Part shown: positions 1-55,193 of the stretch, piece by piece | How the letters are laid out: the number at the start of each line of letters is the position of its first letter | Position numbering within the stretch: position 1 is the stretch's first letter | Origin: a virus | Strand: one strand, 5' to 3' | DNA: 64,000 nt | IMG/VR virus record: IMGVR_UViG_3300029922_000004 | Translations under genes and position numbers: made by a program | Notes under the pieces: generated by a model | The model's input: only the letters and a program-made list of their open reading frames with translations | Databases searched by the model: none | What the model was told of the DNA's origin: nothing

Positions 1-7
1 GACCGCC

Positions 8-3000
8 GTGGATACTAAATTCGCCGTTTCAGCGCAAGACTTGGCAAAAGCTGTTCAGCGTGTCGGTGCGACCGCCGAAGACGCGGGGGTGCGTTTTAAT
101 CAACTCTTAGGCTTCGTAGCCGCCGCTCAAACCGTTACTGCTCGTGGTGGTGCTGTTATCGGTAACGCTTTCAAATCCATATTTACGAGACTGGCTCGTC
201 CACAGGTTTTAGACGACTTGGAAAGTATAGGCGTTACTACCAAAACGGCGGCGGGGCAGATTTTGCCAATGGTGACTATTTTGAAGAATTTGGCGTCTCA
301 ATATGACCATTTGAGCTACTCCCAAAAATCTTTCGTATCTGAAGCTGTCGGCGGCGTTTATCAGGTCAACATTTTAAAAGCCTCTCTCGCTGACTTGGGT
401 AACGGTCTTTCCATTTTTGACAAAGCAACAATGGCCGCAGAACAGTCCACGGGGCTGATAGACAAACGTATGTCTATGCTTAATGAGACTATTTCTTCCA
501 AACTAAATACCTCGGTTTTGGAGATTACCAAATTATTTGCGAATTTTAGCACGATATCATTCGGCTCTTCTTCTAAAAGTGGTCTGGATGGAATGAATCA
601 GGAAATCGCTTCTATTAGTAAATTGTTCGAAGATATTGTTCCTGATGATTCCGTCGGAACTAAAATCGGTAAAACTTTAGCTGTCGGAATAGTTAAAGGA
701 TTGGGGGACATAGTATCAGGTCCGGGTATTCAATTAGCAATGGCTTTATTGGTGAAGTCTTTCGGGACATTGGGAACTTTCGCTATTCAAGCTGGTAGGG
801 AATTTTTGGGGGCTAATAGCCAAGCAGAAAGAATGGCCGCTATTCAGAAAAGTATTAGTTCGTTTATCCTAAGTAACGCTGAAGCTCAAACTGTTTTTAA
901 TAATCAATTATTGACTGGAATCCAACGAACGGAAAAGATAGTCCAGATGTGGATGCAAGCCAACGTCGCCAGCGCGACTTTCCACGCACAAGTCAAAGGA
1001 ATAGCTGAAAAAGGTGCAGTATTGGCTTCTCCTAATATCGGCGGATATCAAAGTAAAGCGTCTGGTTACGTCCCCGATTTCGCATCAGAAGAATCAGAGG
1101 CCCGTTCGCTTGGAGCATTAAATCCTAAAGCCGAATGGGGCAAAGGAACAATCGGCGGCAAGAAGTTCATTAAAAATGACCAAGAAATTGAAATCCCCGG
1201 ATTTGGAAGAAATGGAGACTCGGCGGTTATACCGATGTATGCAGATGGATTTTACCCCGTCCATCCCAAGGAGCCATATAGTGTTTATGACACACAGAAT
1301 CGAACAATCGTCAGGAAGGGTTTTTATGAGAACATTAGGGGGTTGAGAAGAACCTCTGAAAATAAAAATCAAGAATATGGAGCTTATAGATACACGGTAT
1401 TACCTCATTCGGAACTAGAAAGAAGAAGTTTTGAGGGAATGGCTAATAATCCCAATGCCTCCATGTCAGTTGGTAGTAAAACCATCTCTGGAAATGATAT
1501 ATTAGAATATTTTAATCAGAAAGAAAATACAAGAAAGGCTAATTTATGGGGTGGTCAATATGCCGATGGATATGTCCCACCACTGATGGGGCTACATGTT
1601 AAGCCCAGCGGGAATCCATATAGAGATAAGAATGCTCGTAGATTTAATGGTCTTTTAGGCGAATTAGGTACTGGAATAGCTTCGCCAGATGACTCTATTA
1701 GAGGACCGACATCTAAAATATTTGAGAAATTATCTTCAGAATTTTTAAGGAACACCCTCTCGCAACAGGGCGCAGGAGCGATTGAGAGCAGAATTTTAGG
1801 GAAACCAATTAGTCCCCAGCAATTCAAGCAGTTTGAGAAACTATATACTGGCCTAATAAAAGAACCGTATAATGCAGACGAATTCCATAATTATAAAAAA
1901 CCGCTTTACGGTGATAGTTTTCCGGGTTACGATAGCATACATACCTTTTCTACTCATAACGAAGAGCTTGCTAAGAAATTAGGAGTGAACGTCGGAGACC
2001 TAGTGACGCTTGCCCTACAAAGTAAAGGTGGTAAGAATTTGAGGATTGCAGATTTCGCTACCATGGACGATGGCGATTCCGTTCTGCAAAAAGAGGGGTA
2101 TGATAAACCCAGCGTTAGGGCGCTGGCGTTTAGAGATGCAACCACTCTTCCCGGTAATGTACTATATGACGAAATGAATCGTAAAGCCGCAGGATTTCTT
2201 CCATTAACATTTAAGAAAACCTTCAATAGAACCTTCGGAACTCATCGCCTTTTTGGTATGAACGGTAGCGACCCCGTTGGTGATATCGAATATAGCGGCT
2301 CAAAGATGAAAGAGATAGAAGGTTTTGATATCTACGACAAATATCGCGGCAAAGGTCTCGCTAAACAGTTTTATCAAGCATTAGGTAAAGGAAGTATTAA
2401 GGGAACTATTCTTCCGAATACTGACTCCGAAGGCAATACATTTTTCCCCCAATTAAGCCGCGCCAGCGTTGCAAAAGATTCCTATGTTCTCCACTATGGG
2501 TATATGGACAAAAATCAGAAAATTAGCGTCGCCGACTTTAAGAAACTCATTTCCGCTCATAAAGGGGATAGCCAATTCTGGGAAGATAACTCGTTTGACC
2601 TTCATACGCAACATGCCGCTGGTTTTATTCCTAATTTCGCCAGTCAGAATATCATGGATTCAGTATTTGTCGCAGCTAGTAAAATGCCGAACTCTGCTAA
2701 CATTATCGAAAAACTAAAGGAAGGCTCTGGTCTTTCTGATGAATCTTTCTTAAAAGCGGCTAAGATTTTAGGGGTGAATATGGGTGGAGGGTCGCCAGTC
2801 AATCCGAATTCCATGTGGGATAATATCAACCAAGCATTTAATTCAAAGAAACACGATGATTGGTGGAAAAATGTCGACGTAAAACTCAAAGCGAGAGACG
2901 CAAAGTTCGGCTATCCAATTACAGACAACGAACAAACAAACATTAATTTTGTACAGGGGTTATTCAAAAGAAAATTCTCCTCCTTCTCGAATGTTAAGGA

Positions 3001-6000
3001 TATGATGGACCATCGGGAGTACTCTGGTGAACAAAACAATGAAACTGGTGCTTTTGGCACGGGTCTTGATTTCAATTCTGACCATGATACGTTACTAAAC
3101 AAATTTAAAGAAAAATATTTTAGAACGGTAGTTAGCAGAACAAAACCCCAAAATACAAATCTACATTTCTCAATGTTTGGAGCAGAATTCGGATTAGACG
3201 ACGATTTTAAAGATTCGGATATGTCTTATGGGAGACAATCTTCTTTAGAGAAGTTTTTTGCGAAAAGAATGAATAAATACTCTTCTAGAGGGAGATTTTC
3301 GAGTGGATTTGTTCCTAATTTTTCACCTCTTTCAGACGCGGTCAAAAGAGAGATGAGCGCGGGCTATTCTTCATCACAAATCCGTATTGATAAAAGCCCC
3401 TCTTTGATATCTTCGTCTAACCCTAGTGGATTAGGTGTTTATAATTCAACCGAAGGGTCCCTTTCCAATGGAATAACTCTCGCTCAAAGCGCGGGTATTA
3501 ATCCAAAAACCAAAGGTATGGCGGCTGGATTCGTTCCAAACTTCGACATGGGTAATATCGGGATGTCAATGATGCTTGGTATTTTTCAAGGCAGCGTTAC
3601 CGACGTATCTAAAAAGCTTAACTTCCTATCTTATGGATACGACAAACAAATCGAACATCTCCGCAAAATCAACGAAGAATATACCGCCATCGAGAATGAT
3701 ATCAAAGTAAAAGGCAGCGCCACTTATAATGGTCAGACTTATACAACTGGTGGTAGAGGGTCGAAATTCAGAGAAGATTTCAAAGCGGCTAACGCCGGTT
3801 CAGGTTTGACCTTCTATCCAGACGCGGTAAAAAAGCAGGAACAGGATTACGGCCAGTATATAGATAAAAAATCCGCCACTCAACAAAAAATCAAAGGCTT
3901 CGCATTTCAATCGATGTTCGGCGCTCCTATAGCAGCAGAAACATTATCAAGTTCGGCGAGTAGTTTGGGTTTTGCAAATGTCGCCAAAGGTTTGGAGACT
4001 TTCTCCGGCGGTCTTACTTTGGCCTCACAGATGTTGTCTTTATTACCGAATAAGTTGGGTTCTGCGTTGGCAGCAGGAGAATTAATTACCTCGTTGGGGA
4101 GTTCAATATCAGTGGCGGTAGCTAAAGTCGGAACCTACGAAAAAGCATTGGATGTCCAAAGCACGGCATTAGAAAGAATGAGTAGTGCTTCTAATACGGT
4201 CTTGGACTCTTATAACAAACTCAACCAATTATATAATAGCAGTACCTCCACTTTTCAAGATTTTATAACCCAACAGAAGAGACTTTCAGAGGCTTTACAG
4301 GATTTAGGAGCGAGTCTCCCAAATGGAAAGGGAGCCGATTTAGTAAGGCAAATTACTTCTGCCGGAAGCGATGAAGATAGACGCACAGCAGTCGCTCAAG
4401 CACAGGACGCACAACAACAAGAAAGAAACGTCAACGCCACAAAATTGGCTTTAGCCCAAGCGAAAGTTAAAAGTTCTTTCTTCGGAATTGGCGTGGGTAA
4501 TTCTTTCACCGCCAACAACAAAGACGATATCATCGGCAAGAGACAACTATTAGAAGATTCGGCAAAAACGATGGGAGAAGTGGCAGAAAGCAGCATGTCG
4601 CGCTCAATAATGTCCAGACTGACCTCTGGGACTCTGACTGACCGGGATATTTCTGCTATAACCAATCGAGCGGAACAAGGGCCAGATAATAAAGGCAATG
4701 TTCTTGGATTACAGGGGGATTCTTTAAAAACTGCGCTGGCTCAATTAAAATATAACTTGGAGCAATTCAAACTTCCTTCGGGGATTTCTCCAGATGTTTG
4801 GGCTAAACGTAATGAGGATTTCGCTTCCGCGTCACAAGCAGAAATAGCTTTACGCAACAGATACAATCAAGAACTTCAAAATGCCCTTGCTAAAGGAGCC
4901 ATAGTCTCCGACTACCTTTATAAAAGTGCTACAGCCGGAGAAGAAATTAGAAGCGGCAAGGCTTCATACGAAACCCAAAAATCAGGATTCAATGTCAGGC
5001 TCGCCGGACTAACAACCAATGAAGCGGGTATGATTGGTTTAAACGCCCAACAAAAGTCAAGAGAAGCGAATGACGAAATAACGAAAAAGCGAAATCTCAA
5101 TTTTATTAAGGGCAATTCGGATATTAATGGTTTTATCAGTAAGACTATCGCCGAAACTTTCGCTGGAAAACTTAAGTCCGTTCAGGACTCTACTGCTGGC
5201 ATTAGTCCGCAGAAACAGGCCGAGGCCGCTTATCTTGCCAAACAACAAATAGCATTCGCCAAAGACCCCAAAGGCTTAATAGATATTGCTAATAATCCAG
5301 AAGCTTTTGCTCAAAAATTTCTTGGTGGAACTGCTAAAGACGTAATTGGCAACCCGAACAGCGGTATTACCAACGAAAAAGAATATGATGTTTTATCAAA
5401 TTCTCTTTCTAGTCTCGCTAAAACGCCGGAGTTTTACGCCAAACTTCAAGATATTCTAACCAATACACAAGCAATCGAAAAAGAGGGCTTTTTAAGACAG
5501 GCTGGTATTAGTGACGAACAGTTAGAGCAGTGGAAAGAGGTTAATTTTAAGGACTTGGCAAAGTCTTTGTCGGGTTTAAGTTTATTGGACAAAGGAGGGG
5601 CTAGGACAAAAGCTAGGGAAATTAAACAAGCCGAATGGCTTGAACAAAATGCCAAAGACCCAATAACTAGGGGTCGCGGAGCGAGAACTTTGTTGGAAAA
5701 CATGACTTCAGCAGAAAGGGATTATTCAAACCCTTGGGTCAAAAAGTTAGCCAGCGAAGTCTATGCTGGAGAGGTTACTGGGGATAAGTTGGCCAAGGGC
5801 AACGGAGCATTTGCTAACTATACGAATGCTGCCGACCAAAATGACCCTAATAAAGCTGATGCAACAGCAGCAGGATTCGATAACTCTAGGGCCTTCGCTC
5901 AAACATTTAGTATGGGCTTTAGGAATGGACCAAAAATAAGCCTTGGAGATACCAATCCAGCCGGAGCGCCGCCTTCCATAGATATAACTGATTTACAGGC

Positions 6001-7540
6001 TAATATTAAAGTTGCTGATACTAACCTTGATACATTTGGGAAAAACGTAGGACTTGTTGGGTCTCAATTAGCGACTTTGCTACAACAACTTAAAACTTTA
6101 GAATCAACGCCGCGACCCAAACCTCCCACTGGAAATCCAAACACTACACCACCACCGATATCAACCGACGGCTCAATACATTCGTTTTTGGCTAGACATG
6201 GAGAAGGAATAGCTGGAACGATTGGGACTGGACTAGCGTATGGATTTGGTTCCGCAGTCTTTAATAGGGGTGGGACCTTATTAAAGGGTCCAATGAGCAA
6301 AGTCGGTCAATGGGGAAAGAATGCTTATAAAGAATTTAGAGAGGGAAAAGTTGCTGTTCCAGAGGTGAAAATTCCAACATCCGCTGGAATCCCATCGGGT
6401 TCTTCAACAATAGTTACTCCGATGACAGAAGCTGAACAACAGGCTAGAGAATTAAAATTAAGAAAAATAGAAACCTTTGCCAGCCGAACCTCTAAAAGTA
6501 ATGACCCATCAATGGCCGCCCAACATGAGGTAGCGAAAGATTTACACGCAGAGCAAACAGCTAAATATGAAAAACAATTAGAAGACGAGGCAAAATACTC
6601 TAAAGATTTTTCCAAAAATGATTACTCCCACATTCTTAATGCCCCCAAAAAACCAATGTTTTCAAACGCTCCTTTCGCTCAGTTTAAGGGCGACGAAGCA
6701 ACTAAAATATTTAATAAAATTCCACAATCTAGGCTTTTGCCGACGGTGACTAAGGCTACGTCTGCTATGGGAAAATATGCAGCACCGCTTTTACGAACAC
6801 TAAACCCTCTAATGAAGTATGGCGGAAAAGCATTGGGTGTCGCTGGAACTTTGGCTAGTGGATATGATGCTATTCAGGATTTTAGACATGGAGATTATTG
6901 GGGCGCGGCTGGAAACGCAGCAACTACAGCGGCGGGATTTACTGGCGTTGGACGAGCGTTTAACGCAGGATATTATGGTGGGCAAGCTGTCGGAGATGCT
7001 GCCACTTGGTTAGGCGGTCACAAGAACAATGCTCTAGCCGCACAATATGGTCAAAATGCCCAAAACACTTTCGATAATACTAACGCAAGTACCGGCGACA
7101 AAGCCACAAGCCTAGCTTATTTTAACGCTCGAATTAAGAGCTACCAGAATTCCTTAAATAGTTACGGTAATCCATTTAGGGGCGGCGGTAATAGTTTTAA
7201 CCCAGATATTGTTGAAAAACTAAAACAACAAATCTCAAACTTGGAAAATCAAAAGAACTCTCTTTATAATTCCCCCAATAAACCAAAAACTGAGTCTGCG
7301 TCTCCGGCGGAAGGTCCAGCACCCGCTGATGATGATACACAATCCCAAGATAATCTTACAACTTCAATGAATACTTTGGGAGATAAAATCACTGCTTTGA
7401 CAAATGCCAAATCACAAGTAGGGGTTGATATTAATGTGAACTCGGCGTTTTTAACTGCAACGATTAATAGTGCCGTAGGAAATGCTTTCGCTAGACTGAG
7501 TGGGAAGCCGAATCCCGTACAAGTGACTCAACCGGCTTAA
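8..7540 (+). CDS. Tail tape-measure protein (5'-truncated; frame open to the window edge), with internal cargo domains
   Basis: 2510 aa. The N-terminus (DLAKAVQRVGATAEDAGVRFNQLLG...RGGAVIGNAFKSIFTRL) resembles the TP901/PhageMin_Tail tape-measure core. Long Ala/Ser/Gln-rich helical body, directly upstream of tail genes. Confidence 0.85.
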   Translation: MDTKFAVSAQDLAKAVQRVGATAEDAGVRFNQLLGFVAAAQTVTARGGAVIGNAFKSIFTRLARPQVLDDLESIGVTTKTAAGQILPMVTILKNLASQYDHLSYSQKSFVSEAVGGVYQVNILKASLADLGNGLSIFDKATMAAEQSTGLIDKRMSMLNETISSKLNTSVLEITKLFANFSTISFGSSSKSGLDGMNQEIASISKLFEDIVPDDSVGTKIGKTLAVGIVKGLGDIVSGPGIQLAMALLVKSFGTLGTFAIQAGREFLGANSQAERMAAIQKSISSFILSNAEAQTVFNNQLLTGIQRTEKIVQMWMQANVASATFHAQVKGIAEKGAVLASPNIGGYQSKASGYVPDFASEESEARSLGALNPKAEWGKGTIGGKKFIKNDQEIEIPGFGRNGDSAVIPMYADGFYPVHPKEPYSVYDTQNRTIVRKGFYENIRGLRRTSENKNQEYGAYRYTVLPHSELERRSFEGMANNPNASMSVGSKTISGNDILEYFNQKENTRKANLWGGQYADGYVPPLMGLHVKPSGNPYRDKNARRFNGLLGELGTGIASPDDSIRGPTSKIFEKLSSEFLRNTLSQQGAGAIESRILGKPISPQQFKQFEKLYTGLIKEPYNADEFHNYKKPLYGDSFPGYDSIHTFSTHNEELAKKLGVNVGDLVTLALQSKGGKNLRIADFATMDDGDSVLQKEGYDKPSVRALAFRDATTLPGNVLYDEMNRKAAGFLPLTFKKTFNRTFGTHRLFGMNGSDPVGDIEYSGSKMKEIEGFDIYDKYRGKGLAKQFYQALGKGSIKGTILPNTDSEGNTFFPQLSRASVAKDSYVLHYGYMDKNQKISVADFKKLISAHKGDSQFWEDNSFDLHTQHAAGFIPNFASQNIMDSVFVAASKMPNSANIIEKLKEGSGLSDESFLKAAKILGVNMGGGSPVNPNSMWDNINQAFNSKKHDDWWKNVDVKLKARDAKFGYPITDNEQTNINFVQGLFKRKFSSFSNVKDMMDHREYSGEQNNETGAFGTGLDFNSDHDTLLNKFKEKYFRTVVSRTKPQNTNLHFSMFGAEFGLDDDFKDSDMSYGRQSSLEKFFAKRMNKYSSRGRFSSGFVPNFSPLSDAVKREMSAGYSSSQIRIDKSPSLISSSNPSGLGVYNSTEGSLSNGITLAQSAGINPKTKGMAAGFVPNFDMGNIGMSMMLGIFQGSVTDVSKKLNFLSYGYDKQIEHLRKINEEYTAIENDIKVKGSATYNGQTYTTGGRGSKFREDFKAANAGSGLTFYPDAVKKQEQDYGQYIDKKSATQQKIKGFAFQSMFGAPIAAETLSSSASSLGFANVAKGLETFSGGLTLASQMLSLLPNKLGSALAAGELITSLGSSISVAVAKVGTYEKALDVQSTALERMSSASNTVLDSYNKLNQLYNSSTSTFQDFITQQKRLSEALQDLGASLPNGKGADLVRQITSAGSDEDRRTAVAQAQDAQQQERNVNATKLALAQAKVKSSFFGIGVGNSFTANNKDDIIGKRQLLEDSAKTMGEVAESSMSRSIMSRLTSGTLTDRDISAITNRAEQGPDNKGNVLGLQGDSLKTALAQLKYNLEQFKLPSGISPDVWAKRNEDFASASQAEIALRNRYNQELQNALAKGAIVSDYLYKSATAGEEIRSGKASYETQKSGFNVRLAGLTTNEAGMIGLNAQQKSREANDEITKKRNLNFIKGNSDINGFISKTIAETFAGKLKSVQDSTAGISPQKQAEAAYLAKQQIAFAKDPKGLIDIANNPEAFAQKFLGGTAKDVIGNPNSGITNEKEYDVLSNSLSSLAKTPEFYAKLQDILTNTQAIEKEGFLRQAGISDEQLEQWKEVNFKDLAKSLSGLSLLDKGGARTKAREIKQAEWLEQNAKDPITRGRGARTLLENMTSAERDYSNPWVKKLASEVYAGEVTGDKLAKGNGAFANYTNAADQNDPNKADATAAGFDNSRAFAQTFSMGFRNGPKISLGDTNPAGAPPSIDITDLQANIKVADTNLDTFGKNVGLVGSQLATLLQQLKTLESTPRPKPPTGNPNTTPPPISTDGSIHSFLARHGEGIAGTIGTGLAYGFGSAVFNRGGTLLKGPMSKVGQWGKNAYKEFREGKVAVPEVKIPTSAGIPSGSSTIVTPMTEAEQQARELKLRKIETFASRTSKSNDPSMAAQHEVAKDLHAEQTAKYEKQLEDEAKYSKDFSKNDYSHILNAPKKPMFSNAPFAQFKGDEATKIFNKIPQSRLLPTVTKATSAMGKYAAPLLRTLNPLMKYGGKALGVAGTLASGYDAIQDFRHGDYWGAAGNAATTAAGFTGVGRAFNAGYYGGQAVGDAATWLGGHKNNALAAQYGQNAQNTFDNTNASTGDKATSLAYFNARIKSYQNSLNSYGNPFRGGGNSFNPDIVEKLKQQISNLENQKNSLYNSPNKPKTESASPAEGPAPADDDTQSQDNLTTSMNTLGDKITALTNAKSQVGVDINVNSAFLTATINSAVGNAFARLSGKPNPVQVTQPA
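1058..3544 (+). repeat. Seven dispersed copies of a G(F/Y)xP peptide motif, best form (A/S)xGF(V/I)PNF, inside the tape-measure gene
   Basis: ASGYVPDFA 1058, YADGFYP 1238, YADGYVPP 1559, AAGFLP 2186, AAGFIPNFA 2615, FSSGFVPNFS 3296, MAAGFVPNF 3518. All are in the ORF frame. Confidence 0.85.
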
Positions 7541-20936: not shown

Positions 20937-20966
20937 AATATAACCGAGATTTCACTTTTTGTCAAG
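20937..20966 (-). promoter_or_regulatory. Sigma70-type promoter
   Basis: C-TTGACA-17 nt (AAAAGTGAAATCTCGGT)-TATATT, 9 nt before the ATG at 20927. Confidence 0.7.
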
Positions 20967-22146
20967 ACTTTTTCAGCTTGATAATTGTTAAGAATTCAAG
21001 ATTTTCCCAGAAAGCGGGGGAATCTATGACTTTTTGATACTCAAAGTGGTTATTCATCGGAATCCCGCGTTCTTTGGCGGCGAAACTGTAGAAAAATTTA
21101 TCCTCGGATGCCGTGATTTTAGCAGAGCGATAATACAAGTCGCCGATGTCATTTTGCAGTTTAACGATAACGTCGGGCGGGGCTAGTTCAACTTTGTTAA
21201 TGTTTCCGTATTCGTAGTAGTGGATTTTCAACTTCTGAATCTCCTCGGCGGGAAGTTTCGAAATCATTACAAATTTAATCCCCGCTTCTCGTATGGACTG
21301 AATGTATTCGACGCGCTTATCGTCCGAAATCATAATGATGACCATTTGAATATGCGGTTTGAACTGCTTGAGAAGATTGACGTTAATCGGCTGGTCGATA
21401 ATTATAAAACTCTTTTTATAATTCGAGAGTTGATGAATAAAGCATTGTTCGTCGTAACCCAAATCGGTTCTAATTTCGACCATGAATTCGGGGTTAAATA
21501 AGATACGCTTATGGTTAGGAATGGATTCTTGAATGGACGCGCCGGAATATTTGCGGCCCATATACACCGTTTCAAAGGGACATACGAAGTTTAGATTTAA
21601 CAATTTACACACCGCGTTGGCGATTTCTTCAGGGTGAATTAGGTTGATGGTTTTAGGATTCTCGTCGTTGTTAAAAGAGGGTTTTAGACCAGTCTTTTCG
21701 TAGGATTTAAGAAGAATTTGCTTGGATTTATCACCAAAGTAAGGGCCGGTTGTCTCCGCGTATTGCGGCGCGAATAATGCAACTAAGGGGATATCAAAAA
21801 CAGAGGCCACATGAATGGGAAACCCGTCTACGCCAAAATGTAGGAGCGATTTTGAGATTAGATACGCTAATTGATTCGGAGTCGCTTGACCAAGGAGATT
21901 TATGCAGCCGATATGCGGGCGGTCTTTAGCGTCACCAATTTGAACGAGGCGGATGTCGTTTTTTTGGAGAATTGGACTAAGAATATTAATACAATCTTGA
22001 ACGAAGTCATACGAACGCCCCGACCCAAGCCCCTCGGAATGAAAAGTTATATACCGCTCAAATGGAATTGGAAAATAGGTTGTATAGATGAAGGGCTTGC
22101 TTATCTTGCTTCCAGTTGACAATGCAAATTGTTCGGTTTTATTCAT
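20962..22146 (-). CDS. GT9 (heptosyltransferase-like) domain protein
   Basis: LVQIGD...NLLGQATPNQLAYLISKSLLHFGVDGFPIHVASVFDIPLVALF is the GT9 C-terminal Rossmann signature. Confidence 0.7.
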   Translation of the reverse strand: MNKTEQFALSTGSKISKPFIYTTYFPIPFERYITFHSEGLGSGRSYDFVQDCINILSPILQKNDIRLVQIGDAKDRPHIGCINLLGQATPNQLAYLISKSLLHFGVDGFPIHVASVFDIPLVALFAPQYAETTGPYFGDKSKQILLKSYEKTGLKPSFNNDENPKTINLIHPEEIANAVCKLLNLNFVCPFETVYMGRKYSGASIQESIPNHKRILFNPEFMVEIRTDLGYDEQCFIHQLSNYKKSFIIIDQPINVNLLKQFKPHIQMVIIMISDDKRVEYIQSIREAGIKFVMISKLPAEEIQKLKIHYYEYGNINKVELAPPDVIVKLQNDIGDLYYRSAKITASEDKFFYSFAAKERGIPMNNHFEYQKVIDSPAFWENLEFLTIIKLKKS

Positions 22147-24103
22147 GGGTTAGACAACTTTTAAAATCAATGGCGTCTTTGGCATTATGAGAATAGGACT
22201 GATTTTTCAAAGGTAGATATACTATTTCGAAAGTTCCGCGATGTTGCCCTTGTCCTTCACCGAAAAGCGGGTTTTCAAAGATTGGATTATATTCAAGTAT
22301 TCCATTAATATATGGATTACCCTCTATAATAGAGCGAAATGGCGGTTTAGTTGCAACATACAACGCCCAATCGGGGTAGCGATTTTTGATAGATTCGAAA
22401 GTCGCGGTTGCTAGATACACGTCGTCGGCGTTTTCTGGAATTACTACGAGAACGCGGCCTTTATCGGCGGGGTTAAGGAAGTCCTCTAACTTTGACCCTC
22501 CTTTTTGTTCTTGGAGAGTTTTAAACGCGACTTGGCGGAAGTATTGTTCAATTTGGGGGCGCTCTAGGTCTTTATGAATCCTATTGGCCCAGTGAAGAAA
22601 ACCTTCGTCCTTCCTATCCACGGGACGGTCAAGTATTTTTGCGTATAGATACAGAATCCATTCACCATCATCTGCAATTTGGGGTATTTGATGATTCGGG
22701 TCTGCGTTTAACTTTTTATTTTCAAACACAGATGGGTCATTTATAAACGGCGCGGCGTCAATAAACTCTTCATATATTTTTCCAATGCTATCCACAGAAA
22801 ACGTCTTTAAAGCAAACTCTCTGGCGTTATTGCTTAATTTTTTATATTCTTTGGAATCCATCAGGTAAAACTTCTTCATTACCTTGGCAATAGAGTAAGG
22901 AAAGGTCCATGATTTTATGAAGTTCGTTCCAGCCCCTTCAAGATATTCGGAATAGTCCAATGGGAAGGTTGCAGACTCGACGGGTCTTTTACAGAAGTCT
23001 TCTCCACAACTGTAATTAGTCACTGCGCCGGGGAGACCGCATAATTTACTTTCTATTGCAAAGCCAATTTCTAATCCGCCAGAGGTAATTGGTGCAAGAT
23101 AAAAATTAGAGATATTATAAATTTCATTTAATTGTTTTTCTGTAACGCCAAAAGCTGGACCCGTGGTAGTCTGAGATTGGGGTGAGTTACAAAACCTGCA
23201 TTTTAAATTATCTCCTTGATAGTGTTTAATTTCATATTGTCCACAGTCTCGACATATATAGGTGGTTAAAATATCCTGTATTGGTACTCCAAATTGGGCG
23301 CAAAATGAGGGGATATTCCATCCTTCATTAAAACTGGTATGAAAAAGAAATTTTACATTTTTAATTTGTGGATTGTCTTTCTTGAAGAGGGACATTGCTT
23401 CGATAAGATTTGGATAACCTTTTCTTAGCTGATTTCTTGAAACACAGGAAAAAATTACTTCATTTTGTGGTATATTAAACTTTTTTCTAAGTTCAGCTTT
23501 CTCTGCCGAGGGGAGGGGATAAAATGGCGAGCAATCAATAGTTCCATAGACAGTCTTGACGTGACTTAAACCCATCTTATGCATCTCTTCCGTGGAGAAT
23601 TCATTCCAGTTCCAAAAGTGCTTAGACTTCTTGGCTAGGGCAATTGCAGTTGGTAATATGGGTCTACTGTCCAAGGTAACATATGGTACAGAAGTAATCT
23701 TGTTATACCAAGGATGCTCTGCTATAAAATCGACCCCCCAAACGTCGTTAACCATCCACAAAACTTCTACTTTTTCTTTTTTTACAAGTTCATCTATCGT
23801 GAATCTTCCATATGCAGCGGTGCGTTCGATATCCCCATGAGATTGAGGTGGATTTTGTTGTTTTAATTGATTGATTTGTTCTGGAATAATCACGCCGTAA
23901 CATTTCCACGGAACCCTATCGAGGTCTGGATTATTTGCAATAGTCCCCGCACAAAACTGAACAATATCATATTTACCTGTTTGATATAGATAACTAATAA
24001 TAGATTTAGCGTATCTGCCGAAGCCAGTTTTCGCAAGGGCATGGTCAACGAGAAAGGCTACCTTTTTTTTCTTATTTATTCCATTCATAAACTTTATTAC
24101 CAC
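22139..24103 (-). CDS. Multidomain glycosyltransferase (GT4-like core with zinc-ribbon insert; C-terminal GT9-like N-lobe)
   Basis: AKTGFGRY..., SRNQLRKGYPNLIEA, LNEIYNISNFYLAPITSGGLEIG (GT-B). CRDC...CRFC insert. C-terminal DDVYLATATFESIKNRYPDWALYVAT...IEGNPYI. Start may be the ATG at 24088. Confidence 0.75.
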   Translation of the reverse strand: MVIKFMNGINKKKKVAFLVDHALAKTGFGRYAKSIISYLYQTGKYDIVQFCAGTIANNPDLDRVPWKCYGVIIPEQINQLKQQNPPQSHGDIERTAAYGRFTIDELVKKEKVEVLWMVNDVWGVDFIAEHPWYNKITSVPYVTLDSRPILPTAIALAKKSKHFWNWNEFSTEEMHKMGLSHVKTVYGTIDCSPFYPLPSAEKAELRKKFNIPQNEVIFSCVSRNQLRKGYPNLIEAMSLFKKDNPQIKNVKFLFHTSFNEGWNIPSFCAQFGVPIQDILTTYICRDCGQYEIKHYQGDNLKCRFCNSPQSQTTTGPAFGVTEKQLNEIYNISNFYLAPITSGGLEIGFAIESKLCGLPGAVTNYSCGEDFCKRPVESATFPLDYSEYLEGAGTNFIKSWTFPYSIAKVMKKFYLMDSKEYKKLSNNAREFALKTFSVDSIGKIYEEFIDAAPFINDPSVFENKKLNADPNHQIPQIADDGEWILYLYAKILDRPVDRKDEGFLHWANRIHKDLERPQIEQYFRQVAFKTLQEQKGGSKLEDFLNPADKGRVLVVIPENADDVYLATATFESIKNRYPDWALYVATKPPFRSIIEGNPYINGILEYNPIFENPLFGEGQGQHRGTFEIVYLPLKNQSYSHNAKDAIDFKSCLTHE

Positions 24104-25586
24104 AGTCCCATATTCTATTCCAACCGTTATTTTTCATGTTTTCCCATTCTGATAATTCTGGATTAAATTTATCCAAGACTTCCGACAAATGACTTTTTCT
24201 AAAATTATATCGGTGATAAAGCTTCCTCTCTTGCCTTATAAAATACCAATAATTGGGTCTGGAATTATGTTTTAAAGAGAATCCAAGATTCTCGTATAGA
24301 TGTCCCACCGACCATCTTCTATCCGCATAAGATATTATAGTATTAGGTAGTTCTTTTCTCGTAAAAAACTTAAATAATTTGCTTGCTCCACCTATAATTG
24401 AAAAATTTGCGATATTGCAGAATCTACTCAGTTCCCAAGTCCCATGTTTTATATTTTTATGCCCTAGCGCAACTCTGGGTTTACAAAAAGTCATCACAGA
24501 AACTAAACGATTTTTATAGAACAGCCCCAGATTTTTTTGTGATTTATCAGCACCTTGAATATGATATTTAGTAAGAAATTTGTTTTTTGTTACAGCATCT
24601 ATTTCTTTAATATGACATTTCCTTGCATAAATTTTGTATTTTAGTAATCCGAGGATTGATTTTAACCGCGAAAAGACAATTTTGGTTTTTTTAAGAATTT
24701 CGCAGTCATATATCTGAAGCAGTGAAATGTCCTTCTGTTGACATAATTCTAATTTATTTCTGTCGGCATATTTATCTCCGTCGCGTTCGTCTCGAATTAT
24801 TTGACTATGCCAATATAATCCATTACATTCAATCCCTAAATTAAGAGATGGAATAAATATATCTAATTCTTTTCCTTCTAGTATTTTTCTATCATTTTTT
24901 ATATAAACAATATTATGTTTGTCCAGAAAAGAGTGAACGATTGTTTCCAAGCCCTTATTAAAGATTCCGCATTTGGGACACCCACAGACACGGTGAACAG
25001 CTATAGACTTTGAAAACCATCCGTGTTTGGGACATTTGATATTAAGAATCGTCTTATCTGTAACATCTTTTTCATTTTCAATAGTAGAAACATCATAAGT
25101 ATATTTATGATTGTAAATCTTATTAAATAATTTAATATAATAACTAATTCCTTCTCTTGCATTATATCCATTATTTTTTAAAGCACAGGCCGGGCATCCA
25201 TATTTTGAATTAAGATGAACGGCGGGATTTTGGTCGAATTCTCCATGAATAGGACAAATGATGGTTACTTTTCTATGAAAGCCATTGTATTCGACACTAG
25301 AATAGTTAAAAAAATTGTTATACTTTAAATTTGCTCTCTTAATGAATTCATCTTGAGGCAACCGTTGATTTTTATTTACCGTCTCGTTCCTACATTGATG
25401 ACACCCTCCATTCCCGTCGTTTCTTTTATGTCCATGATATCTGATAAAAAAAGACCCATGTTTTTTACAGACAATTTCAAGTTTATCATCGTATCCTGTA
25501 TAATTTACCTTAGAATAATCAAATTTATCCCCATGTTTTTCCGTAAACTTGCGTATGATTTGTTCGTTAGTAAGCCTTAATTTCAT
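24072..25586 (-). mobile_element. Hef-like free-standing homing endonuclease (three Zn-binding repeats, Vsr-like nuclease, C-terminal GNAT/Mom-like domain)
   Basis: Repeats HGDKFDYSKVNY...CKKHG...GCxxC three times; ELDIFIPSLNLGIECNGLYWHS nuclease; C-terminal WELSRFC...GGASKLF...SYADRRWS...RIWDCG. Confidence 0.7.
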
Positions 25587-26209: not shown

Positions 26210-29200
26210 GTGGATTTTACAAGCACAACTGGTAATATTATTGTCGGAAACGTTTTTGAAGGGGCATACTCAATCCCAATTCTCCCCACTGGCTACGTTG
26301 ACGGAAGCCCATTTTATTACGCGTTAATCAATCAAGGAATTAATCCTTCTGGCATTACAGGAACTTTTGTATATTTTCAATCTGGGAACGAGTTTATTGA
26401 TTCGGGTTATTTACTATCGGGGCTAATAGGACAATCACAAGTTTTGTCGGGGGCTACTTCAAGCCCATCTAATGCTTCGGGCTATTTGTTTTATAGAATT
26501 AACGCCTCGATATATGGAACATGTTGTGGGGTAGGTTCAGATGCTAACGTCTGGTTTTCGGGGTACAGTTTTTATAATGCCTTTCATCCCGGCGGATACT
26601 ACTCCCCGCCGTTTGGCGAAAACCTTTCCGTCTACAAGCAAAATCAAGATGGTACAAGTTCATTAAGTGAAGTGGGTAGTTGTGATTCTCTTACTACTAC
26701 AGAATACAATGATATTTTCGGCATCAATACCCAGCTAGATGACTTAATTAACGACTCTTCTGATAGCGCAACTGCTTATATCAATTCCCCGGCTATAGCA
26801 TGTCCACAAGATTTGTCGGTGACTTATTACTGGCACGAGACAGATTACAACATCATCGCGGGGACTTCTAGCGCCATCGCGGGTAATACGTTTTATAATA
26901 CTAATCCTATACCTACTTCGCTGGATAACTTTTACGTTAAAACTAATCTAAGATATGCAACAAGTGGAAGTGGATTAGGAATATTAGTAGATAATGGTGA
27001 TGGTACAAAAACCGAGGAAATCCTTGAGACTATCTTATATGATAGTTCTGGAAGACCAATCCCCGCCTATCCAACGTTTGATGGTGGCGTTTCAGGTCAT
27101 GCAAACTCGGATATTTTTAATACACAGACTTGCCCCGGATATATTGCCGAAAATGGTATTGCTATAGGTCAGAATACTGAAAGCCAATTAATAGACGTAG
27201 CTGATGCATCTCAAGGCAGCGATGGACATTTTGACTTTTTCAACTGGTGGAATATATGGCACTTTTTACCAAAGGAGAATAGTGATGGTTTTCCTTTCTC
27301 CAACGGTTATAGTAATAGCGGCAATGTGGGCCTCACAACCGATACTGATGGTAATCAAGGTAGTTCTCTTTTTGAATATAGTCTGGCGGATAGTGACGCT
27401 TACTGGGACAGAAGGCAGTGTCCCGAAGCGATATCATTTCTTCCTCATACTTTTGGGGCGTCAATTTTTGCGTGTCCACAATATTACTTGGATGTTCCGT
27501 ATTATGCAGCCAATAAGAAATTTGGATTTTATGGAACAAGATTTCTAAATGGATGTGTCAGTCTTGAGATGGATTATCCTACCGGTACAACGCCAAACGT
27601 TTCTGACTTACCAACGGGATATACTTATATCACCCCGCAGGAAATTGAACCTTCTCCAGACGCGGGAATTAATTGGAGCTTCCCTAACTACACGAATCTT
27701 CTAAGAATAGCCGCCGCAGAGGAGAAACAATCAGATTTCTATGCTTTAAATAAATCATTCTTCTTGTGGACGAATTCGGGGTTGGTAACGCAATCCTCAG
27801 ATTTTGCCGTTTTAACTGGTAACAGTGGTTTTTATCCCTTGTTTTTGAGTCTTTTCGGGCAATACAACAACTATTTCCCCAGCGGAACAGGTGATTTTGT
27901 TAATAAAAATAGCGGTCTTTTTGAAAGCGGTGTGGGGTCTATTTTCTACGACACCGGCACAACATATGAATTTTTAGGCAATAACGACAATTATATATTA
28001 TTTAAAAATCAATTAACTTCAATACTTACAGGCATTAATGAAATTAATAGTTGGGCATCAATAGAATCCCAGTATGCTTGTGGCGTTTTAGACTCTAATG
28101 GAAATATTGCGTCGGACTTTTATGGGGCATTAAATAGTGGCAAGCAATCAAGATTACAGACTAGATACTTTGAAAATTACGTTAAGGGAAATCCAATTGA
28201 TTTATATCCTACTAATAAAATAACATTTAGTTATGACCACGCGGGAGACTTCATTAATAGTAGTGGGTGGGGTAAATCGCCTTTTGGTTTTGGATTGAAT
28301 AGTAGTTTTGCCGATAGTGGACTTACAAGAAGATATTTTGTCGGTGCTTATGGAGATGGTGAGGATATTTCTGAATTAACCAACTTTATAAGTCAGACCG
28401 CTAACATTAATAACGGCGCGTTCTATCCGGGGTATTTTGATAATAACCAGAATATGGAATTGCCGGAGCCAACCTATACTCCGGTTCTGACAGGTAGCGG
28501 CAGTATGAACGGCGGAACGTTTAATCCTCTTCCTAATGGGTGGATGGCTATGGGTTATAATGGTGTCGGTGAAATGAAAAACAATTTTTCGTGTTTTACT
28601 CCGATATTTATAAGGCAACCATTCAACAAAACGTACTGTAAGGTGGGTCAGTCGCCCACTTTTCGCTCTTTAGCAGTTGATTATCATACAATTCCCGAAG
28701 ACAAGATAAATATCCGCTATCCCGAAATTGTTTACTGGGCAGAAAAGTTAAAAATGATAGATACCAACTACAATAACCTATATCCCCTATCTTATAAGTG
28801 GTACAGAATTCCTACAGGTAGTTGTACTGGTTCTAATGGTCAGGCTAGTTTTTCTAATTTTCTTTTGAATCCTAATTTTGAACTACTAGACCCTTCTAAT
28901 CCTACGGGTGATTGGTGTGCTTTAGAGGGAGATGGTCCGATTTGTACTTTAATTCATCCAACTGGCTGCGTACCGGCATTCACTCCAAATGGGGCATGGG
29001 CTTATCCTAATATTGATACCCCAATATATAAAACCGCGCAACAGAATAACTTCTATATGACAAAAAAGAAGGGCGCAATTAAAGGGGTGGATGACCAGTA
29101 TTACTATTTCTGTATGACTAGAGGAAGGTTTGGAATAAGAATTAGCGAGCCTTCAGAACTATTTATCGAGGATTGGTTAAAATTTGATTTGTCAATACAA

Positions 29201-30961
29201 AATGGAGGCAATGTCACTATTAACCCCACCGTTCAGTTTGTGGCGGGCGATACTGGTATTTCTTGTAGTCCTACTAACGTTGTAAGTTATGGTGGATTCG
29301 TTAGAGACAATGATTCAATTCCAGAAGATGTTATTCAAGAACAAATCCCGCCGCCAAACGCAGGATATGGGGATGTTTTTTCTTATAAATTTGTAGGCTC
29401 GTGGGCTTATCGTGGAGCGAATCAAACTTACGTACCCGGAACTTTAAAAGATACTAGGGGACTTCAAGAAACGTGGGGTAGGTTGCTAGACTACGGAACT
29501 TTGGTTCAATATAATGTAACGTTGGCCCAAGAAGATGGAGATTTTTTGTATGGTAGGAATCATCTCCCAGTTTGCAGCAATAATACTATGGTAACCGCCC
29601 AAGATGGCATTAAAGTCATAGTAGATGGGGTTGTTCATTGGGCTAATATGCAGAGTCCAATCGTGGATACTGACGGAAGATATGGGGTTTTGTGGAATCA
29701 ACTAGGAAATGCCGGTGAACTTTATGTTCCATCTGACATGACAAGTAATGGGGGAATCGCAAGTTGGAGTCCCGGTGTTGGTCAATGGCAGTATGGTAAC
29801 AATTTGGGAACAATACATTCTTTCGGATGGGATAGTCAACTAGCCGACATAACTAAAATAGGAAATGGCGGTTTTGATAATACCAGCCTACAAACTTTGA
29901 AAAAGAACCTTTTGGGTGGTGGGGCTTTGGGTGGAGAAAACTGTGGATGGAATAAGTATGGTTTAGGTAGGAATATGGCTTATTGGATTGAAGGATTTAG
30001 TTCCTTTTATTTATATTGTGACTCGCTTAAGAAAAAGAACATCACTAATTATAATTACATGAATCCCGGCTTGAGGCAGACTAACAGTTCAGTGCAATAT
30101 TTCTGGCTCGGTAAACCTAATAACAGCTATTTAGATAGGTATCCTCTTTTCGGCCCTTATGCTTATCAGTGGAAAACCTATCCACACAACAGAGATAGAA
30201 ACGGTAATGGAATATCAGAGGGGTTATATTCCTATGGATGGAATACTAATTATACTTTACAATATGATGCTCCCGCGATTTATGGATTATTTATGAAGTA
30301 TGGTAGTTCTAATAGAGATAAGGCCACTATTAACGCGGCTAGAGCATCTGTGTTCGGCCCTAATCCCACATCAGTCACCTCTACTCGGTTCGGCTTTACA
30401 AATGGAGATGGGGGTACGCGAGGACAGTACGGAAATATTTGGTTGGGCAATATCTCAGACCCGGGAAATGCGACAAGAGATTACGTTAATTCTGGGGTTT
30501 TTAACGCAGAGACTCAAGAAATGAATTTGTACGGATGTTCCGATGAAGATTTGTTGGCGGGAAGATGTTTTGACCCCTGCTTGAGTATGAGATATCAATT
30601 TGGATTCCTTCCGGGCGGGAAGAGACAGGATATGACAACAAATTATCCCGGCGGTTCTGGTTATAGAATTGTTGCTAATGCCCCAGTCATAAACAATGCT
30701 CCCGTAACCCAAACGCAAGATGTAAATGGAACATTTTTCCGTGGGGCTTTTGGAACCCCTCATATACAATATTTGAAAACTCAAGTGGGTGCCATATTAA
30801 CACATGAATTAAATGGTTTATCTCCTTGTTTCGATGGGGGCGCTGACCACTGCAACTATATCACCCCGACTCTTAATATCGGTTCTTCTATGTATTTAGA
30901 ATCAACAACATCAAACTTTTTTGCGAATGCGAATTTAGCAACTCAATCGGTCAATCTCTAA
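26210..30961 (+). CDS. Large virion/tail-associated protein with an Ig-like domain
   Basis: 1583 aa, Cys/Gly/Asn/Tyr-rich. PIFIRQP...VGQSPTFRSLA...LSYKWY...YYYFC...IRISEPSEL resembles an I-set Ig pattern. Confidence 0.6.
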   Translation: MDFTSTTGNIIVGNVFEGAYSIPILPTGYVDGSPFYYALINQGINPSGITGTFVYFQSGNEFIDSGYLLSGLIGQSQVLSGATSSPSNASGYLFYRINASIYGTCCGVGSDANVWFSGYSFYNAFHPGGYYSPPFGENLSVYKQNQDGTSSLSEVGSCDSLTTTEYNDIFGINTQLDDLINDSSDSATAYINSPAIACPQDLSVTYYWHETDYNIIAGTSSAIAGNTFYNTNPIPTSLDNFYVKTNLRYATSGSGLGILVDNGDGTKTEEILETILYDSSGRPIPAYPTFDGGVSGHANSDIFNTQTCPGYIAENGIAIGQNTESQLIDVADASQGSDGHFDFFNWWNIWHFLPKENSDGFPFSNGYSNSGNVGLTTDTDGNQGSSLFEYSLADSDAYWDRRQCPEAISFLPHTFGASIFACPQYYLDVPYYAANKKFGFYGTRFLNGCVSLEMDYPTGTTPNVSDLPTGYTYITPQEIEPSPDAGINWSFPNYTNLLRIAAAEEKQSDFYALNKSFFLWTNSGLVTQSSDFAVLTGNSGFYPLFLSLFGQYNNYFPSGTGDFVNKNSGLFESGVGSIFYDTGTTYEFLGNNDNYILFKNQLTSILTGINEINSWASIESQYACGVLDSNGNIASDFYGALNSGKQSRLQTRYFENYVKGNPIDLYPTNKITFSYDHAGDFINSSGWGKSPFGFGLNSSFADSGLTRRYFVGAYGDGEDISELTNFISQTANINNGAFYPGYFDNNQNMELPEPTYTPVLTGSGSMNGGTFNPLPNGWMAMGYNGVGEMKNNFSCFTPIFIRQPFNKTYCKVGQSPTFRSLAVDYHTIPEDKINIRYPEIVYWAEKLKMIDTNYNNLYPLSYKWYRIPTGSCTGSNGQASFSNFLLNPNFELLDPSNPTGDWCALEGDGPICTLIHPTGCVPAFTPNGAWAYPNIDTPIYKTAQQNNFYMTKKKGAIKGVDDQYYYFCMTRGRFGIRISEPSELFIEDWLKFDLSIQNGGNVTINPTVQFVAGDTGISCSPTNVVSYGGFVRDNDSIPEDVIQEQIPPPNAGYGDVFSYKFVGSWAYRGANQTYVPGTLKDTRGLQETWGRLLDYGTLVQYNVTLAQEDGDFLYGRNHLPVCSNNTMVTAQDGIKVIVDGVVHWANMQSPIVDTDGRYGVLWNQLGNAGELYVPSDMTSNGGIASWSPGVGQWQYGNNLGTIHSFGWDSQLADITKIGNGGFDNTSLQTLKKNLLGGGALGGENCGWNKYGLGRNMAYWIEGFSSFYLYCDSLKKKNITNYNYMNPGLRQTNSSVQYFWLGKPNNSYLDRYPLFGPYAYQWKTYPHNRDRNGNGISEGLYSYGWNTNYTLQYDAPAIYGLFMKYGSSNRDKATINAARASVFGPNPTSVTSTRFGFTNGDGGTRGQYGNIWLGNISDPGNATRDYVNSGVFNAETQEMNLYGCSDEDLLAGRCFDPCLSMRYQFGFLPGGKRQDMTTNYPGGSGYRIVANAPVINNAPVTQTQDVNGTFFRGAFGTPHIQYLKTQVGAILTHELNGLSPCFDGGADHCNYITPTLNIGSSMYLESTTSNFFANANLATQSVNL

Positions 30962-30971
30962 TATAATAAAC

Positions 30972-36142: not shown

Positions 36143-37363
36143 TTATTTAATATCCTTAAGGTCACTTAATTTGTCGTAGATTGAATTTTGTTGCGAGGCC
36201 ACTGAATCCGCGAATAAACTATCATCGGCTGTTTTTGACCCGCTTACTATAACTACCGAACCTTCGGGCGGAATACCGTTATTCATCGTTTTACAATCTT
36301 CTAGCTTATTAGGACGCCATTTGGTTTCCTTAGTGTTTTCGCCGAGGCCGAATAACATCACCTTTATAGACCCGCTTTCGTCGGAGATTTGAAAATTCGC
36401 GTAGGGAGTTCCGGCTTTGGACTTGGTAACTTTAACTTCGTCAATCTTGCCGATGAAGTCGCAGTGGTTCTTTTCTTCTAGTTTTTTCACTTCGGAGATT
36501 GGAATTAGGGTGGACTTTTTGTGGAGGAAGATGTCGCGGAGTTTTTTGCCGGTATTGTAACCGAGGAGTTTTTCGGAATAAAAATAATTTGCAAAATCAA
36601 GGCTAATTTTGTTTTTGTTATAAATTTCCTTGTATTTTTGTGAATTCCGCTTAATTGTTTCAAAACGAGAAGGTTTAATCAAAGGTTTGCCCTTTTCATC
36701 CTTGACTACTTCTACTAATGCTTTAACTGTCTTGGCTACATTGTCTTCGTAGTTTTTGGCGTATTTGGCGACGTTGAGTTTTTCATGGTCTTTTAAAAGA
36801 TTCCAAAGTTGAGCTTCGTAGACGAGTAGGACGCGATTCTTACCGAGAGAGTCTAAACATCCCGCCTGAATGATTGCGCTGATTATCCCAATACCTAAAC
36901 CCGCTTTTTTGGCGGAAGAGAATAACTCAAATTTACTAGCATATTGACGTTGGAAATTATTGAATTTTTCCATTGTTTTTTCGCTGATACCCTTGATAGA
37001 CGCCAGACCGAAACGAATATTCTTATCTTCAATTGCGAAGTCCATGCCGGATAAAGTCAAACTCGGCGGAAGTAATTCCACCCCAAAAGACGACATCTCT
37101 TTATGAATTTTAGAAATTTCGCCAATCGGGTCAGGCTCATTGCGAGTCATTTTTAATAGAGAAAGATAGAATTGAGTTGGATAATTGAACTTGAGGTAAA
37201 CGGTTTGAGCGGTAAGGATAGAATATGCAAAAGAATGGCTATTGCTAGTCACCATGCCTTCAGCATAGAAGTTATGGTCTTTGTGGTCAACTTCTAAATC
37301 AATTGTAGGCTTAACCCCAATCGGTTTGATAGAAATGATTTTTTGTTTTTTTACAGTTTTCAT
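36143..37363 (-). CDS. dnaE: DNA polymerase III alpha (DnaE), C-terminal part, with N-terminal split-intein C fragment
   Basis: After the intein: SHSFAYS...YLKFNYPTQFY, IRFGLASIKGIS, IIQAGCLDSL, and an OB-fold (KSKAGTPYANFQISDESGSIKVMLF). Confidence 0.92.
   Translation of the reverse strand: MKTVKKQKIISIKPIGVKPTIDLEVDHKDHNFYAEGMVTSNSHSFAYSILTAQTVYLKFNYPTQFYLSLLKMTRNEPDPIGEISKIHKEMSSFGVELLPPSLTLSGMDFAIEDKNIRFGLASIKGISEKTMEKFNNFQRQYASKFELFSSAKKAGLGIGIISAIIQAGCLDSLGKNRVLLVYEAQLWNLLKDHEKLNVAKYAKNYEDNVAKTVKALVEVVKDEKGKPLIKPSRFETIKRNSQKYKEIYNKNKISLDFANYFYSEKLLGYNTGKKLRDIFLHKKSTLIPISEVKKLEEKNHCDFIGKIDEVKVTKSKAGTPYANFQISDESGSIKVMLFGLGENTKETKWRPNKLEDCKTMNNGIPPEGSVVIVSGSKTADDSLFADSVASQQNSIYDKLSDLKDIK
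37241..37363 (-). other. Split intein C-fragment (41 aa)
   Basis: MKTVKKQKIISIKPIGVKPTIDLEVDHKDHNFYAEGMVTSN|S: blocks F and G, terminal Asn, Ser+1. Confidence 0.92.
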
Positions 37364-37371
37364 AAATTTAT

Positions 37372-37378
37372 GTGTAAT
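37372..37378 (+). promoter_or_regulatory. GTGTAAT box (putative late promoter)
   Basis: 9 nt before the ATG at 37388. Confidence 0.6.
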
Positions 37379-37387
37379 ATATATTGA

Positions 37388-40696: not shown

Positions 40697-40701
40697 ATTT
40701 G

Positions 40702-40731
40702 ATTATAAACTACTTTTCCGAAAACGTCAAG
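40702..40731 (-). promoter_or_regulatory. Sigma70-type promoter
   Basis: C-TTGACG-17 nt (TTTTCGGAAAAGTAGTT)-TATAAT, 5 nt before the ATG at 40696. Confidence 0.75.
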
Positions 40732-41188: not shown

Positions 41189-41191
41189 AAA

Positions 41192-41620: not shown

Positions 41621-41621
41621 T

Positions 41622-52261: not shown

Positions 52262-52291
52262 ATATTAGGGTATTTTTAAGATTTTGTCAAG
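52262..52291 (-). promoter_or_regulatory. Sigma70-type promoter
   Basis: C-TTGACA-17 nt (AAATCTTAAAAATACCC)-TAATAT. Confidence 0.7.
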
Positions 52292-55186: not shown

Positions 55187-55193
55187 GCTATTA

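Follow-up and report, generated by a model that had tools for sequence, protein, structure and literature searches.

Phage tape measure proteins (TMPs) are known as rulers, as channel formers and as occasional carriers of one cell-wall hydrolase, and the TMP of mycobacteriophage TM4, in work attributed to Piuri and Hatfull in 2006, reportedly has a cell-wall hydrolase motif embedded in it. In phage T5, the TMP pb2 is cut after R1127 into pb2* and pb2C (Linares et al., 2023, PMC10038345); the protease involved is unknown, as are both the cut site and the catalyst for gpH of phage lambda (PMC12617516). Polyvalent proteins, which are typically described as head-packaged or conjugation-transferred and are built on hub domains such as the MPTase peptidase, have been proposed to release their domains by proteolysis, in a study that mentions neither TMPs nor any junction motif (Iyer et al., 2017, PMC5512222). 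Finally, Sle1-type effectors are TMP-related proteins of actinobacterial contractile injection systems (Nagakubo et al., 2026, PMC13277306). Here we compare these systems with the TMP encoded at the start of a 64-kb stretch of viral DNA from IMG/VR record IMGVR_UViG_3300029922_000004 (the whole 64,000 nucleotides analyzed, hereafter the window). Our analysis makes it very probable that this protein has a cassette architecture delimited by a short repeated peptide motif, with six inter-motif segments (S1 to S6) lying between seven motif copies.

T5 pb2 resembles the window TMP in that a short site beside a hydrophobic stretch parts a functional module from the ruler, although cleavage of the window TMP is proposed only by analogy. 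However, pb2 has one site near its C-terminus, which releases the muralytic pb2C (with a metallopeptidase motif), whereas the family described here has up to 12 sites in the N-terminal half and many unrelated modules. Moreover, the modules flanking the pb2 site are not homologous to S1 and S6, the small conserved modules that open and close the array. Polyvalent proteins are likewise large phage proteins with several unrelated, often exchanged domains, GNAT among them, and are believed to accompany the DNA into the host. In contrast, the carrier here is a TMP, most modules fall in no known family, and no hub or processing domain such as the MPTase peptidase was detected in whole-protein or per-segment Pfam scans. 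Viewed as a candidate polyvalent protein, the TMP has modules that are unrelated and exchangeable, with an enzyme-type fold in S4 only and a weakly nuclease-like S3b (the second half of S3).

TM4-type TMPs carry within the ruler a functional domain whose action comes at infection, as the window TMP may also do, but their motifs number one or two and are directed at peptidoglycan, and they are not known to have a repeated junction peptide or to exchange cassettes. Sle1 shares a TMP-derived scaffold in a tail-like tube with an exchangeable functional domain; it differs in that this domain is single and C-terminal, in that the injection system is not a phage, and in that no motif-delimited multi-cassette array has been described for it. 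We found no paper in the literature on a repeated junction peptide delimiting an exchangeable multi-cassette array in a TMP, and the sole literature match to the motif strings was an unrelated human serum proteomics study.

The tape measure protein and its junction motif

The TMP gene (2..7540, + strand) is truncated by the window, being open at its 5' end, and translates to 2512 of the 2705 amino acids (aa) of P0002, an identical full-length protein encoded on a 186-kb metagenomic contig. The TMP N-terminus matches PF10145 (PhageMin_Tail; 52.3 bits versus a Pfam gathering cut-off of 33.2, E = 8.5e-14), and four PHROG tape-measure families match the protein (E = 3e-27 to 4e-13); by these profile matches, the product of this open reading frame (ORF) is a TP901-type TMP. 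A Pfam scan of the whole protein (E up to 1) returned PF10145 alone, plus one chance-level match to DUF3606. The C-terminal body of the TMP (3548..7537, + strand; aa 1183-2512), which is Ala/Ser/Gln-rich by composition, comprises 1330 aa and is colinear with that of P0003, the closest relative, at 61% identity.

The motif G[FY]xP is located at aa 355, 416, 523, 731, 874, 1102, and 1176 (nucleotides (nt) 1064-3544) and nowhere else in the TMP. The original prediction, made from the sequence alone, had counted seven such copies, and the count holds: 0.68 are expected from composition, and seven were reached in 0/5000 shuffles. In addition, all seven copies are preceded by [AS]-x, for which 0.13 sites are expected, and a six-frame translation of the 64-kb window confined the motif to the TMP. 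The prediction had further written the repeat with a bracketed Asn-Phe at its end, which some copies have and others lack. When scored by a 9-residue matrix built from the family copies, three of the seven are canonical (GFIPNF, GFVPNF, and GFVPNF; 26-30 bits), GYVPDF (20 bits) is near-canonical, and the other three (GFYPVH, GYVPPL, and GFLPLT; -8 to +7 bits) have decayed at the Pro-Asn-Phe positions.

All copies lie on the + strand. Copy 1 (ASGYVPDFA; 1058..1084, aa 353-361; 20.5 bits) is the near-canonical one, with Asp for Asn, and marks the fixed start of the array. Copies 2 (ADGFYPVHP; 1241..1267; -7.8 bits), 3 (ADGYVPPLM; 1562..1588; 6.8 bits), and 4 (AAGFLPLTF; 2186..2212; -1.3 bits) are decayed, and the closest relative reads AAGNVSLSF at copy 4. 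At the point of copy 2, P0003 has a canonical ADGFVPNFS versus the ADGFYPVHP found here, indicating that the joint of the S2 insertion falls inside a motif. Copies 5 (AAGFIPNFA; 2615..2641; 29.7 bits), 6 (SSGFVPNFS; 3299..3325; 28.1 bits), and 7 (AAGFVPNFD; 3521..3547; 25.8 bits) are canonical, and a mildly hydrophobic stretch comes after the last.

The seven copies are encoded by different codons (nucleotide identity 12-20 of 27), indicating that selection acts on the peptide and not on a DNA repeat. Since their longest shared run is 10 nt, recombination between repeats at the DNA level is unlikely; homology breakpoints do fall at the motif, as described below. In AlphaFold models (two runs, with shallow fragment alignments of 8-11 rows), every motif copy lies in a stretch with a predicted local distance difference test score (pLDDT) below 50, between domains with pLDDT 66-91.

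Modules and their exchange among relatives

S1-S6 measure 52, 98, 199, 134, 219, and 65 aa, in agreement with the lengths first reported for them, and they are mutually unrelated, as had been claimed: pairwise comparison gave no significant similarity (best E = 0.09). The long segments S2-S5 are also set apart from the TMP body by composition (aromatic residues 9-13% versus 6-8%, charged residues 26% versus 17-22%). A segment-wise Pfam search (E up to 10) gave no family on five of the six segments, a weak GNAT match on S4 being the only one.

S4 (2213..2614, + strand; aa 738-871) had been called a recognizable GNAT. At the level of fold this is borne out: its AlphaFold model (pLDDT 55-91) found only GNAT proteins among the top 50 matches in Foldseek (E = 2e-3, TM 0.35-0.46) and among the top 50 in VIA (Z 5.5-6.8 over 92-120 residues, rmsd 3.2-5.8), values that are middling in both cases. 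The segment also has the acetyl-CoA loop R-G-K-G-L-A at aa 782-787, which fits [QR]-x-x-G-x-[GA] and aligns with the loop of YycN and other solved GNAT chains; its R, G, K, G, and A are invariant in 6/6 orthologous modules (50-69% identity). At the level of sequence profiles the assignment falls below the curated threshold (best Pfam family PF14542, 12.6 bits versus a cut-off of 30, E = 0.15), and a search of the S4 profile against PDB gave GNAT chains that are likewise sub-threshold (E = 0.4-1.1). The structure matches support a GNAT fold for the S4 model, from which acyl-transfer activity may be inferred at most.

The remaining segments, all on the + strand, are less readily assigned. S1 (1085..1240; aa 362-413) is modeled as a helix plus a small beta-sheet (pLDDT 66-76) and S6 (3326..3520; aa 1109-1173) as alpha-beta-beta-alpha (pLDDT 70-82); the S1 and S6 profiles gave only chance-level matches against PDB (E = 0.09 or worse, including chain TmpF at E = 0.21). 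S2 (1268..1561; aa 423-520) is modeled as an alpha/beta domain (pLDDT 67-91) for which fold searches gave no consistent match; it is missing from P0003, and its sole homologue in an exhaustive HMMER search is in P0086. S3 (1589..2185; aa 530-728) is composite. Its first part, S3a (~aa 530-625), models at pLDDT below 50; its second, S3b (~aa 625-728), is common to P0003 and P0004 and models as beta-alpha-beta (pLDDT 50-73), with weak recurring matches to restriction-endonuclease-like folds (Z 4.2-6.0: AF1548, NucS, Hjc, VRR-NUC, and SEN15). When S3b was checked for PD-(D/E)xK, the acidic residue before Lys proved to be Gln or Ser in the three homologues and is not conserved. S5 (2642..3298; aa 881-1099) is modeled as helical at pLDDT below 50, has full-length homologues in P0003, P0083, and P0085 only, and gave no lead in an ESM Atlas feature search. 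By these models, S1, S2, S4, and S6 are folded, and globular cargo is shown for S2 and S4 and plausible for S3b. The claim that the long segments are globular rather than helical tape measure is upheld for at least S2 and S4, and does not extend to the low-confidence S5 and S3a.

To place this array in its family, we used a word-indexed search with aa 340-1200, which returned 79 proteins, all of them TMPs of 1400-3900 aa. The exhaustive HMMER search, in which S2-S5 were compared with 1.84 billion representatives, gave 17 hits, adding ten proteins (1700-3360 aa) plus one 60-aa fragment. The consensus [AS]-x-G-[FY]-[IV]-P-N-F-[AS] is present in 82/90 proteins, with 370 canonical copies in all and 0-12 per protein; the core G..PN is invariant, and the residues that flank the motif are unconserved. 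In full-length relatives the array begins at a constant place, with the first copy at a median position of aa 547, and hydrophobic stretches adjoin the array and follow its last motif.

Comparison among these proteins showed conserved flanks with a varying interior, in keeping with what the original prediction had anticipated for relatives. S6 is present in about 80/90 proteins and S1 in >30 relatives, some of which are cargo-less TMPs of 1400-1570 aa, and the N-terminal domain and the presumably helical body are conserved as well; in the cargo-less TMPs P0056 and P0079, S6 is still bracketed by G-x-[VI]-P-N-F. Inside this bracket, relatives differ in how many modules they have, of which kind, and in what sequence; their 337 inter-motif segments fall into 91 clusters. 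At least 77 families have modules of 90 aa or longer, 45 of these families being singletons, and the family of GNAT-like modules was found in slots 1-7. P0003 is without S2 and the first half of S3. The breakpoints fall at the motif, again as anticipated: for 3716 homology blocks, the distance from a block end to a motif was 10 aa or less in 63-69% of cases, versus 12% for random points. The image of a swappable magazine of effectors is therefore apt as far as exchange goes; that the modules are effectors is a further step, since only S4 has an enzyme-like fold.

The motif also varies in concert. Variants cluster by protein, with a within-protein concordance above that of all 2000 shuffles; this is a modest effect, to which common descent may contribute. 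In P0008, 3/5 copies have P-N-L, and several other proteins use or mix in G-H-[VI]-P-N-F. P0083 (3099 aa, motifs at aa 556-1683) has [AS]-x-G-x-[VI]-P-N-L in 6/6 copies, with no aromatic residue after Gly, and this concerted change suggests a motif reader that co-evolves with its sites.

Cargo modules of relatives include recognizable domains. P0017 and P0029 have a bona fide PF00583 GNAT in the TMP. A Walker-A P-loop (GPSGSGKT, GPMGSGKT) was observed in others (P0087, aa ~75-85; P0083, aa ~1023-1031), suggesting that the module pool includes NTPase- or kinase-like domains besides GNAT.

Searches beyond these proteins were largely negative. No cultured relative was found in 50,697 GenBank phage records (megablast, and tblastn of the array, S6, and the whole TMP), where matches were to the TMP N-terminal domain only, at ~25% identity, and a scan of IMG/VR with S4 gave no close relative. 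The motif DNA pattern gave mostly chance single matches in 185,579 genomes, together with three real arrays, each on a contig of 4-6.5 kb; the bins of these contigs are Flavobacterium, Proteobacteria, and Paceibacterota, so that no host can be inferred. On one 49-kb ENA contig (labelled 4.13x), the TMP is called as three ORFs of 781, 153, and 1189 aa (L011, 5675-12093), each shifted by +1. The 153-aa ORF (P0093) consists of exactly motif-S6-motif; this stand-alone S6 probably results from frameshift or assembly indels on the 4.13x contig and was not used as a natural split.

Readings of the junction motif

We favor, at a probability of roughly 0.4, the reading that the array is a motif-coded cargo polyprotein, which is cut at the motif and whose modules are carried by the tail and delivered to the host. 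S1 and S6 bracket a fixed insertion site ~550 aa from the TMP N-terminus, at which unrelated folded modules are strung (here S2, S3, the GNAT-fold S4, and S5), and each junction is, or was at one time, [AS]-x-G-[FYH]-[VI]-P-N-F-[AS] in a flexible linker. Conservation at the peptide level together with concerted variation within proteins suggests that one common factor reads all copies. The motif would most likely be a processing site, with the cut placed after Asn by analogy with FVPR↓A of T5 pb2 (arrow, cut). The modules would ride in or with the tail and become separate proteins, either at assembly or once ejected into the host envelope or cytoplasm; at decayed junctions, of which there are three here, the adjoining modules would remain fused. 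The data show the architecture, the exchange of modules at the motif, the conservation of the peptide, and that S1, S2, S4, and S6 are folded; cleavage, its scissile bond, delivery to the host, and any enzymatic activity are what we infer. Other motif chemistries that we take to be candidates are signal-peptidase-like A-x-G↓F, prepilin-peptidase-like G↓F, Asn-dependent self-cleavage (N↓F, presumably as in tetravirus coat proteins), and N-glycosylation; N-F-S is found in only ~12% of motif copies.

A broader form of this proposal is more doubtful. In it, the motif would be a cleavage code common to a large uncultured phage lineage, and cutting at G-[FY]-[VI]-P-N↓F, once the tail is assembled or its contents ejected, would release separate enzymes (an acetyltransferase, nuclease-like and P-loop proteins, and dozens of unknown folds) ahead of the DNA, with the single cut of T5 pb2 as the minimal form. 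The evidence for cleavage in either form is a weak likeness to the T5 site: when the family matrix was run on T5 pb2, the local sequence of the cut site, ANSFVPR↓AE, ranked 1 of 1211; the chance of a matrix match in any register spanning the T5 bond is roughly 8 in 1211.

Several results weigh against a cleaved cargo polyprotein. Despite its rank, the T5 site scores below zero (-4.1 bits), with only F-V-P shared and Arg in place of the invariant Asn, and profiles built from 102 S1 sequences and 214 S6 sequences miss both T5 pb2 and lambda gpH. Cleavage products are not on record for any member, a search of the window and of the genes next to the TMP in relatives turned up no protease, and Pfam gave no peptidase domain in the TMP. 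In addition, 3/7 junctions are without the Pro-Asn-Phe core, which implies that the motif is dispensable at individual junctions. The HMMER search of 1.84 billion representatives found no relatives of S2-S5 outside giant TMP-like proteins, a distribution that suits tail-specific parts equally. Finally, folded domains of 100-220 aa, in three or six copies, are hard to fit in a tail-tube lumen of ~4 nm, a difficulty that besets every reading with folded cargo in the tube; an array that is unfolded in the tube, or placed at its head-proximal end, may ease this packing problem.

Among the alternatives, the one that survives best, although we regard it as unlikely, is that the motif is never cut and serves as a docking or registration element. 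Each copy would bind a tail or assembly partner (the tube lumen, a chaperone, or the same motif in other TMP chains) and keep three or six chains in register, while the modules stay in one polypeptide and, after ejection, loop between membrane-entering hydrophobic segments. The conservation of the peptide, its concerted variants, and its position in linkers suit a binding site as well as a cut site, and the lack of a protease in the window and beside the TMP in relatives would be expected. The bracketing of S6 by the motif even in cargo-less TMPs suggests a role that belongs to the TMP itself, and the moderately hydrophobic stretches on either side of the array are consistent with the proposed membrane-entering segments. 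However, no partner was identified, AlphaFold gave no intrachain pairing of motifs (with its shallow alignments), decayed copies are tolerated, and the top matrix site in T5 pb2 is its cut site and not a known docking site.

It is rather improbable that the modules are structural parts of the tail or ejection channel (spacers, plugs, or periplasm-spanning pieces) instead of host-directed enzymes, with the GNAT fold as an inactive scaffold. Their confinement to giant TMP-like proteins, the absence of any module that reaches a Pfam threshold, the low-confidence helices modeled for S5 and S3a, and the persistence of motif-flanked S6 and S1 in cargo-less relatives all agree with such a role. An inactive scaffold is nonetheless hard to reconcile with an R-G-K-G-[LF]-A loop that is invariant across six S4 orthologues at 50-69% identity, and the PF00583 GNAT of P0017 and P0029 and the Walker-A modules of other relatives also argue for enzymes; rapid gain, loss, and reordering of modules are typical of conflict genes and not of structural components.

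Even less probable is that the motif does nothing in the virion and is an insulating linker with a turn (Gly ... Pro-Asn), retained for letting neighboring domains fold independently and marking where illegitimate recombination gives viable chimeras: the coincidence of breakpoints with the motif, the S2 joint that destroyed a copy (ADGF↓YPVHP, the arrow here marking the joint, versus ADGFVPNFS in P0003), and the tolerance of decayed copies would fit it, but an inert linker would neither hold eight residues near-invariant over 370 copies with free flanks nor change in concert within one protein, and shared runs of 10 nt or less are a poor substrate for homologous exchange.

Genomic context and significance

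Gene order around the TMP is kept in seven relatives, with genes for products of ~300, 95-120, 260, and 290 aa before the TMP and of ~550 and 545 aa after it, and none of these adjoining genes matched any named family. The two conserved ORFs directly upstream of the TMP (~260-280 and 280-300 aa; L002, 8288-9965, with equivalents in L004-L008 and L010) lie in different frames and are 1 nt apart or overlap by a few nt. They occupy the position of the tail assembly chaperones (G/GT), yet each is double the usual size, and neither matched any family. A GIY-YIG gene is found just 3' of the TMP in relatives (L002, 19532-20350; L010, 11409-12218).

Elsewhere in the window, the gene for a DnaE-type DNA polymerase III alpha appears to be split into separate ORFs (36143-43809, - strand). 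These encode a PHP part (42026-42784, - strand), the NTPase and finger domains with a weak intein-like C-terminal end (38226-40046, - strand), and the HHH and OB domains (36143-37363, - strand); between them lie a GIY-YIG endonuclease gene (37388-38236, + strand) and an RNase T-like exonuclease (40046-40696). The window is also dense in homing endonucleases (24072-25586, 46188-47051, and 49450-51633, all on the - strand), the set comprising an HNH protein (phrog_559, E = 1e-121), a GIY-YIG/NUMOD3 protein, and a 727-aa ORF with a LAGLIDADG insert, which is a likely intein host. Sugar-pathway genes are located at 20962-24103 and 52276-55282 (both - strand) and encode two glycosyltransferases, a GDP-mannose 4,6-dehydratase, and a C-methyltransferase. 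Two adjacent giant ORFs of 1583 and 1543 aa (26210-35603, + strand) have no PHROG match.

If the array is indeed a cut and delivered cargo polyprotein, an entire phage lineage would use its tail lumen to bring in a variable set of proteins, which would reach the cell before phage gene expression, at the very moment when host defences act. The junction peptide would then provide a sequence rule for the boundaries of about 80 uncharacterized module families and a candidate explanation for TMP cleavage in T5 and lambda, and it would give engineers a ready-made point at which to insert cargo into phage tails. Should the motif instead be a docking element, it would represent a new assembly signal in the least-resolved part of long phage tails.

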